From the NCBI RefSeq assembly GCF_030013205.1, contig NZ_CP122648.1: DNA of 64,000 bases; one strand, written 5' to 3'. Position 1 is the first letter of the stretch. The number at the start of each line of letters is the position of its first letter. The DNA comes from Escherichia coli. Its GTDB lineage: Bacteria > Pseudomonadota > Gammaproteobacteria > Enterobacterales > Enterobacteriaceae. Below are positions 31,312-31,520 of the stretch, one piece after another. A model generated the notes under the pieces. That model worked only from the letters and a program-made list of their open reading frames with translations. It was not told where the DNA came from and searched no databases. The position numbers were made by a program, and so were the translations under genes.

Positions 31312-31321
31312 TTTCCCCGTA

Positions 31322-31353
31322 AAGCGGCAACTTTTTTGAGTTGCCGCTTTTTT
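31322..31353. terminator. Bidirectional terminator between convergent pflA and ycaM
   Basis: GCGGCAAC-loop-GTTGCCGC with T-runs on both strands. Confidence 0.55.
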
Positions 31354-31520
31354 ATTCCGCTCTGCATAAATAATTCAGAGCTCTATTTCTAACGCCCTTA
31401 CAGCACAGCTTCCAAATGTATTACCCAAACCGCCAGTATATGTCCTGCGGCTTACGCGCATTTCTCGATTATGTAAAAACGGGTCAGATCTGCCAGAGTC
31501 AGCGTCACCGACCACAATAA

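Follow-up and report, generated by a model that had tools for sequence, protein, structure and literature searches.

In the Escherichia coli DNA analysed here, a stretch of 64,000 nucleotides referred to as the window, pflA and ycaM face each other across a short gap, and K-12 holds two further genes, ycaK and ycaN, at the same place. The locus raises the question of whether these genes were lost in the window or gained in K-12, by what kind of event, and how widely the shorter arrangement is distributed. The gene order of the window is ycaO-focA-pflB-pflA (+) followed by ycaM (-)-ycaD (-)-ycaC (+)-dmsCBA (-), which is E. coli backbone. In tblastn searches, PflA at 30571-31308 is 100% identical to K-12 PflA over residues 1-246, and YcaM at 32951-31524 is 99.8% identical to its K-12 counterpart over residues 1-476. 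The stop codons of the two convergent genes occupy 31309-31311 and 31521-31523, leaving 31312-31520, or 209 bp, between them; the initial annotation of this DNA had estimated about 210 bp. It had also placed ycaK and ycaN between pflA and ycaM in K-12, and the annotation of BW25113 bears this out with the order pflA - ycaK (-) - ycaN (+) - ycaM (-), in which the stops of ycaN and ycaM abut; adjacency of pflA and ycaM in K-12 was not found. The features of the interval and its borders are collected in the table.

Features of the pflA-ycaM interval and its flanking genes, in coordinates of the window
Feature	Position	Strand	Description	Basis
pflA (pyruvate formate-lyase 1 activating enzyme)	30571-31311	+	intact, 246 aa plus stop	tblastn and RefSeq annotation of homologous loci
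pflA intrinsic terminator	31321-31356	+	13-bp stem, 4-nt loop (31321-31350), T-run 31351-31356	terminator scan
Former pflA-ycaK intergenic spacer (putative)	31357-31397			blastn break, three-way and virtual-deletion alignments
ycaK relic (putative)	31398-31403	-	stop codon (TTA on +, TAA on -) plus last codon	alignment
Deletion junction (putative)	31402-31404		CTTAYAG/CACA	virtual deletion of K-12
ycaN 3' relic	31404-31520	+	CACAG (31404-31408), 10-bp loss, 36 in-frame codons plus stop (31410-31520)	
ycaM (APC-family permease)	31521-32951	-	intact, 476 aa plus stop	tblastn and homologous-locus annotation

The interval is very probably the scar of a single, old, illegitimate deletion of ~1.47 kb that removed ycaK-ycaN, the intact state being ancestral and the allele of the window derived. 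The alignment with K-12 is the starting point. By blastn, window 30544-31367 corresponds to positions 3001-3824 of the K-12 locus (L001) and window 31408-34400 to positions 5336-8327, with a break at 31367/31368, and 40 bp of the window stand opposite 1511 bp of K-12. An indel in the backbone relative to K-12, as initially proposed, is thus confirmed by alignment. The 40 bp at 31368-31407 have no blastn match in K-12 and were considered as foreign filler, a reading rejected by a three-way alignment that includes E. albertii and by a virtual deletion. In the latter, 1466 bp (L001 3856-5321) were removed from K-12 and the remainder was aligned with the window and with E. albertii; it aligns end to end with both, and the junction is reproduced.

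The dinucleotide AG at 31402-31403 is a 2-bp microhomology common to both K-12 breakpoints, and no direct repeats flanking the breakpoints at 3856 and 5321 were found. Deletion mediated by an IS element or by repeats was rejected on these grounds, and the event is therefore read as an illegitimate, microhomology-level deletion. The window and the K-12 module share the same site, the pflA terminator and ycaM, and the relic in the window corresponds to the 3' end of the K-12 ycaN. Missing from the window are 1466 bp, which cover all but the stop and one codon of ycaK, the promoter region common to the two genes, and ycaN up to codon ~260. One event would have taken the divergent pair of ycaK, a Flavodoxin_2-type NAD(P)H oxidoreductase, and ycaN, a LysR-type regulator, together with their common promoter region. 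Both 5' ends would have been removed and both 3' ends kept, namely the ycaK stop codon and the last ~36-38 codons of ycaN.

From the alignments, the 209-bp interval appears to be a deletion scar and not empty spacer. Its first part beyond the terminator, 31357-31367, is still K-12-like, and the following 30 bp (31368-31397) are strongly diverged, with ~47% identity to K-12 including indels and ~73% identity to E. albertii. The ycaK stop region reads CTTACAG in the window and CTTATAG in K-12 (L001 3849-3855) and in E. albertii. The full-length ycaK ORF (197 aa, Flavodoxin_2 family) is not present in the window; its stop and one codon are left, and YcaK gives no tblastn match better than E = 2.5 anywhere in the 64 kb.

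For YcaN, tblastn finds residues 267-302 only, encoded at 31410-31517 with 97% identity to K-12 (E = 2e-19), and no second copy within the 64 kb. Full-length YcaN has 302 aa, with an HTH_1 domain at the N-terminus and a LysR_substrate domain; here the HTH is missing, as is the greater part of the effector domain. The absence of both genes first reported for this locus therefore holds for ycaK as a gene and is slightly too strong for ycaN, because its 3' relic remains. The relic ends one base before the ycaM stop codon and fills more than half of the 209 bp. The description of the interval as merely spacer and terminator does not stand, as the ycaK stop codon lies there too.

The remaining YcaN residues (YYPNRQYMSCGLRAFLDYVK) correspond to the invariant C-terminal motif YYPNRQYM..LRAF.D of full-length homologues from six other genera. 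The relic covers a motif conserved in complete proteins and therefore derives from a complete gene. The corresponding O157:H7 sequence carries a pseudogene label in RefSeq, 'missing N-terminus'. Compared with the 3' end of K-12 ycaN, the relic shows 4-5 differences in 113 bp, and these cluster near the junction, with 3 in 18 bp and then 1-2 in 95. A secondary loss of 10 bp has removed the K-12 sequence AGCGTCCAGG from within the relic, a loss not seen in E. albertii, where CACA-A-CGTCC is kept.

A substitution of Ile by Met in the relic (ATC to ATG, 31416-31418), also present in O157:H7, creates a potential 34-codon ORF at 31416-31520 in what was the reading frame of ycaN, with no evident Shine-Dalgarno-like sequence ahead of it. 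The possibility that the interval encodes an sRNA or another structured RNA was considered and rejected. A search of Rfam over the interval gave no match near the gathering score (best 21 bits against 58.7), and the ycaN-relic region on the ycaM strand shows no significant fold relative to shuffled sequence (z = -0.21). A promoter in the relic was likewise rejected, with one weak sigma-70-like match on the - strand (9/12) where 0.5 are expected by chance.

A bidirectional terminator had been proposed between the two genes, and this claim stands in part. The symmetric hairpin downstream of pflA does fold on both strands, at -20.3 kcal/mol (z = -5.49) on the + strand and at -19.0 kcal/mol on the - strand, the ycaM side. 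On the + strand it is followed by the U-tract UUUUUUAUU, and the 13-bp stem holds 6 G-C pairs ahead of TTTTTTATT. On the - strand it is followed by UUUAC, UUUACGGGG. The consensus terminator scan calls the + strand only. Because both the U-tract and the scan call are confined to the + strand, a bidirectional intrinsic terminator is unsupported by the canonical criterion, and the structure is canonical for pflA only. The same pflA terminator is common to K-12, O157:H7, the short allele described below, and E. albertii. In the window pflA would keep its own terminator, and transcripts of ycaM would cross the ycaN relic and meet this hairpin in the orientation without a U-tract.

The closest annotated counterpart of the window is O157:H7 (NZ_CP038416.1), which has the same order, the junction CTTACAG/CACAG, and a 36-codon relic abutting ycaM, annotated as pseudogene E4U90_RS18610 ('incomplete; missing N-terminus'). 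The window and the O157:H7 locus are co-linear across 3857 bp with 98.6% identity. The window has every feature of the O157:H7-type deletion allele: the convergent 209-bp gap, the junction with its linked spacer, and the relic abutting ycaM. The two differ by point differences only (98.0-98.8% identity), for instance TTTATT at the terminator loop in O157:H7 and TTTTTT in the window. In the K-12 / O157:H7 genome comparison of Perna et al. 2001, K-12 segments missing from O157:H7 are said to have been called 'K-islands'. The ycaK-ycaN segment would belong to this class, being a short stretch of K-12-specific backbone that O157:H7 lacks.

The distribution of the arrangement was surveyed in 5426 complete E. 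coli genomes. Window 31250-31600 served as the junction query, and a genome was counted as a carrier when at least 80% of the query was covered in one piece. The junction allele of the window is carried by 1021/5426 genomes (18.8%), with 97.4-100% identity across the query, and both O157:H7 and O145:H28 are among the carriers. The ycaK-ycaN allele, recognised by the K-12-specific 1511 bp, is found in 3341/5426 (61.6%), 3318 of them near full length. In a third, short allele, pflA is directly followed by ycaD (1047/5426, 19.3%). The three classes sum to 5409/5426 and leave 17 odd cases, a total that is consistent with, though not proof of, the lack of any ycaK or ycaN copy elsewhere in deletion-allele genomes. 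The loss allele would thus segregate at ~19% in E. coli beside the intact allele (~61%) and a larger deletion that removes ycaM (~19%).

The indel had been called strain-specific, and the survey contradicts this. A recent deletion private to the strain or clone would agree with the difference between the window and K-12 at this place and with the occurrence of the exact haplotype in a set of porcine isolates. Its presence in more than a thousand genomes that include O157:H7 and O145:H28, and in E. albertii as well, makes this reading highly improbable. Of the genomes surveyed, 276 match the window at the junction with 99% identity or more. Over 12 kb, the haplotype of the window is matched at 100% by at least 15 complete porcine isolates, including porcine ETEC, and by an O139:H1 strain; K_EC180 and ETEC1748 are among the genomes 100% identical to it. 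A collapse of the region through faulty assembly or sequencing has a negligible probability, given the same structure in more than 1000 independently finished genomes and the perfect match of the porcine isolates. In porcine ETEC6333 and ETEC6334 and in O139:H1 P15-25 (H1, H151, H152, H163), ycaM is split by an IS1 (~776 bp extra); apart from the insertion, these isolates match the window at 100% across 12 kb.

The short allele, represented by WP4-W18-ESBL-08 and APEC O2:K1:H4 E12053, resembles the allele of the window in lacking ycaK and ycaN, in keeping the pflA terminator, and in its frequency. It is a separate, larger deletion in which ycaM and the ycaN relic are gone too. Its breakpoints (locus L003) fall at window 31353/31354 and 33110/33111, so that the lost segment (31354-33110) takes in ycaM, the ycaN relic and the spacer, and the pflA and ycaD terminators stand back to back with 4 bp between them. 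One genome (H70), 92% identical at the junction query, was considered as a cryptic-clade genome; this was rejected, and it proved to be a normal E. coli of the short-allele type whose terminator bears a small indel. K-12 and BL21 are taken here to belong to phylogroup A, O104:H4 to B1, O157:H7 to E, and the O2:K1:H4 APEC to B2. On these presumed assignments the three alleles look phylogroup-associated.

Other disruptions of ycaN are also seen. Strain EC96 carries IS1B copies within ycaN. Truncated YcaN proteins of 187-258 aa form several large clusters (P0009, P0017, P0019, P0044) with up to 429 members from E. coli and Shigella flexneri. This suggests that ycaN is often secondarily inactivated and dispensable even in strains with the intact, long allele.

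The spacer type of the window, the medium type, occurs in 988 E. coli genomes, a number that does not exceed the 1021 deletion carriers, and spacer type and deletion are therefore regarded as tightly linked. No intact ycaK-ycaN allele with the medium-type spacer was seen; the K-12, BW25113 and short-allele loci examined are without it.

The window's junction is also found in the E. albertii type strain (CTTATAG/CACA), with a more diverged relic that carries a 1-bp frameshift. The E. albertii interval has the window's architecture of spacer, ycaK stop and ycaN relic; it differs in a diverged 3' end of the relic and in other small secondary deletions. Eight further E. albertii contexts have a geneless 206-bp gap between ycaM and pflA, and 7/8 contain the junction 11-mer. 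This 11-mer occurs once each at the O157:H7 locus, in the E. albertii type strain and at the 7 further E. albertii loci, and in 0/87 other loci; it is absent from K-12, the short allele and all other loci examined. Since E. albertii has the same junction in a more decayed state, the deletion allele is considered old. The E. albertii flanks are ~7-18% different from those of the window, and recent transfer is therefore excluded. The allele may date to about the split of E. coli and E. albertii, or to an old exchange between both species.

In some E. albertii strains (L092, L095, L096), a P2-like prophage with an integrase, Cox and a RepB-like protein adjoins pflA, between pflA and pflB (5641-9434). 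PflA is called as 265 aa, not 246 aa, in these prophage-bearing genomes.

The spacer and the flanks tell different stories. The spacer of the window is nearer to E. albertii (~73%) than to K-12 (~47%), whereas the flanks are 98.4% identical to K-12. This contrast fits an old allele whose flanks were probably homogenised by recombination, while the bases adjacent to the junction stayed allele-specific. Later recombination between E. coli alleles would have homogenised the flanks, and the 30-bp spacer would have stayed linked to the deletion. The relic is unexpectedly well preserved for such an age, being nearly identical to K-12 ycaN, and recombination with intact alleles may explain this.

It is also possible, if rather unlikely, that E. 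coli acquired the deletion later, by short-tract homologous recombination over the junction, from E. albertii or another Escherichia lineage in which it had arisen, and did not inherit it as a polymorphism predating speciation. The spacer's greater likeness to E. albertii within flanks that are K-12-like and only ~82-93% identical to E. albertii would be explained in this way, as would the clustering of relic differences within 18 bp of the junction and the fact that in E. coli the medium-type spacer was seen with no long allele. The spacer is, however, ~27% different from that of E. albertii, hence E. albertii itself was no recent donor, and an old polymorphism with recombination-homogenised flanks predicts the same pattern.

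A bolder reading is that the locus holds a long-lived, possibly selected polymorphism of three alleles, the middle one trans-species and older than the E. albertii split, which, given the effect of YcaN on focA, ycaC and ycaD in K-12, would represent alternative ways of regulating formate and anaerobic metabolism and not neutral gene loss. It is regarded as improbable.

The direction of change was examined with an outgroup scan anchored on PflA, with one genome per species and at least 80 loci mapped with tblastn. The loci listed include one true Escherichia species besides E. coli and are without Salmonella, E. fergusonii, E. marmotae and E. ruysiae. Among the 80 loci listed, the deep state of Enterobacterales is pflA directly adjoining ycaD, and ycaM lies between pflA and ycaD in E. 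albertii, several Citrobacter, Kluyvera and a Pluralibacter MAG. Neither ycaK nor ycaN was found among these PflA-anchored species-representative loci (0/80). The interval between pflA and ycaD is a variable hotspot, ranging from ~45 bp to ~5.6 kb between species (L005-L083).

The scan stands against a deletion and, taken alone, would point to ycaK-ycaN as a late acquisition of E. coli. In that case the window would show the ancestral state, and the pair would have entered K-12-type strains horizontally, as an insertion separating pflA from ycaM. The adjacency of pflA and ycaM in Citrobacter, Kluyvera and E. albertii agrees with such an insertion, as does the patchy taxonomic distribution of YcaN homologues. 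It is nevertheless very improbable. The ycaK stop and 36 in-frame ycaN codons are already present in the window, and an insert would have had to complete two gene ends exactly. The gaps between pflA and ycaM in Citrobacter are 50-65 bp, and the relic is absent from them.

Two loci from more distant relatives also carry ycaK-ycaN at this site. A Logan contig (L085) carries pflA', ycaK, ycaN and ycaM' in K-12 order at 77% nucleotide identity to K-12; in ycaM it is roughly as remote as Citrobacter. Pseudocitrobacter corydidari has ycaK-ycaN, with YcaN 79% identical, between pflA and ycaD. A late gain, as read from the 80 loci, is overturned because of the relic, the Logan contig and P. corydidari. 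The presence of ycaK-ycaN at the same locus in more distant relatives therefore supports a derived state in the window. Judged from these sequences, the ycaK-ycaN arrangement is probably ancestral at the pflA locus and was lost repeatedly. The P. corydidari locus (L084, 5217-8930) also contains a further LysR gene and one for a CBAH (choloylglycine hydrolase family) protein, and is without ycaM.

Other differences from K-12 are found elsewhere in the window. An insertion of 705 bp lies between ycaL and aroA (20781-21485); the product of its ORF at 20884-21393, on the - strand, is an IS200-like Y1 transposase (Pfam Y1_Tnp, E = 5e-38). A 21-kb insertion between dmsA and serS (39440-60470) is a P2-like prophage remnant. 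It encodes an integrase (39523-40530), a tail fibre (47785-50442), a tail-fibre assembly protein, a tape-measure protein (52258-55101), a sheath (56158-57516), and a gpD-like hub (57368-58609). In K-12 coordinates the two blastn segments around this remnant have 20 bp in common, which is what a duplicated attachment core would give.

The allele of the window is an ordinary, common and already annotated gene-content polymorphism, whose relic is already a pseudogene in the RefSeq annotation of O157:H7. It is mildly unusual only in its age, being common to E. albertii, and in its three-allele structure. The junction sequence is a clean and cheap marker for the old haplotype that E. albertii also carries. 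The locus further illustrates how recombination may even out the sequence on either side of an indel and leave some tens of junction-adjacent bases allele-specific.

Strains with the deletion allele would have no YcaK and no YcaN, and no YcaN-dependent regulation. In K-12, a ycaN knockout lowered ycaC, raised ycaD and focA, and had a formate phenotype (PMC9068703). If this result holds, deletion-allele strains would be without a YcaN control layer over the neighbouring genes. In ~39% of finished E. coli genomes ycaN and ycaK are naturally null, and results on the YcaN regulatory network of K-12 are therefore not transferable to O157:H7, the porcine lineage, or the short-allele strains.
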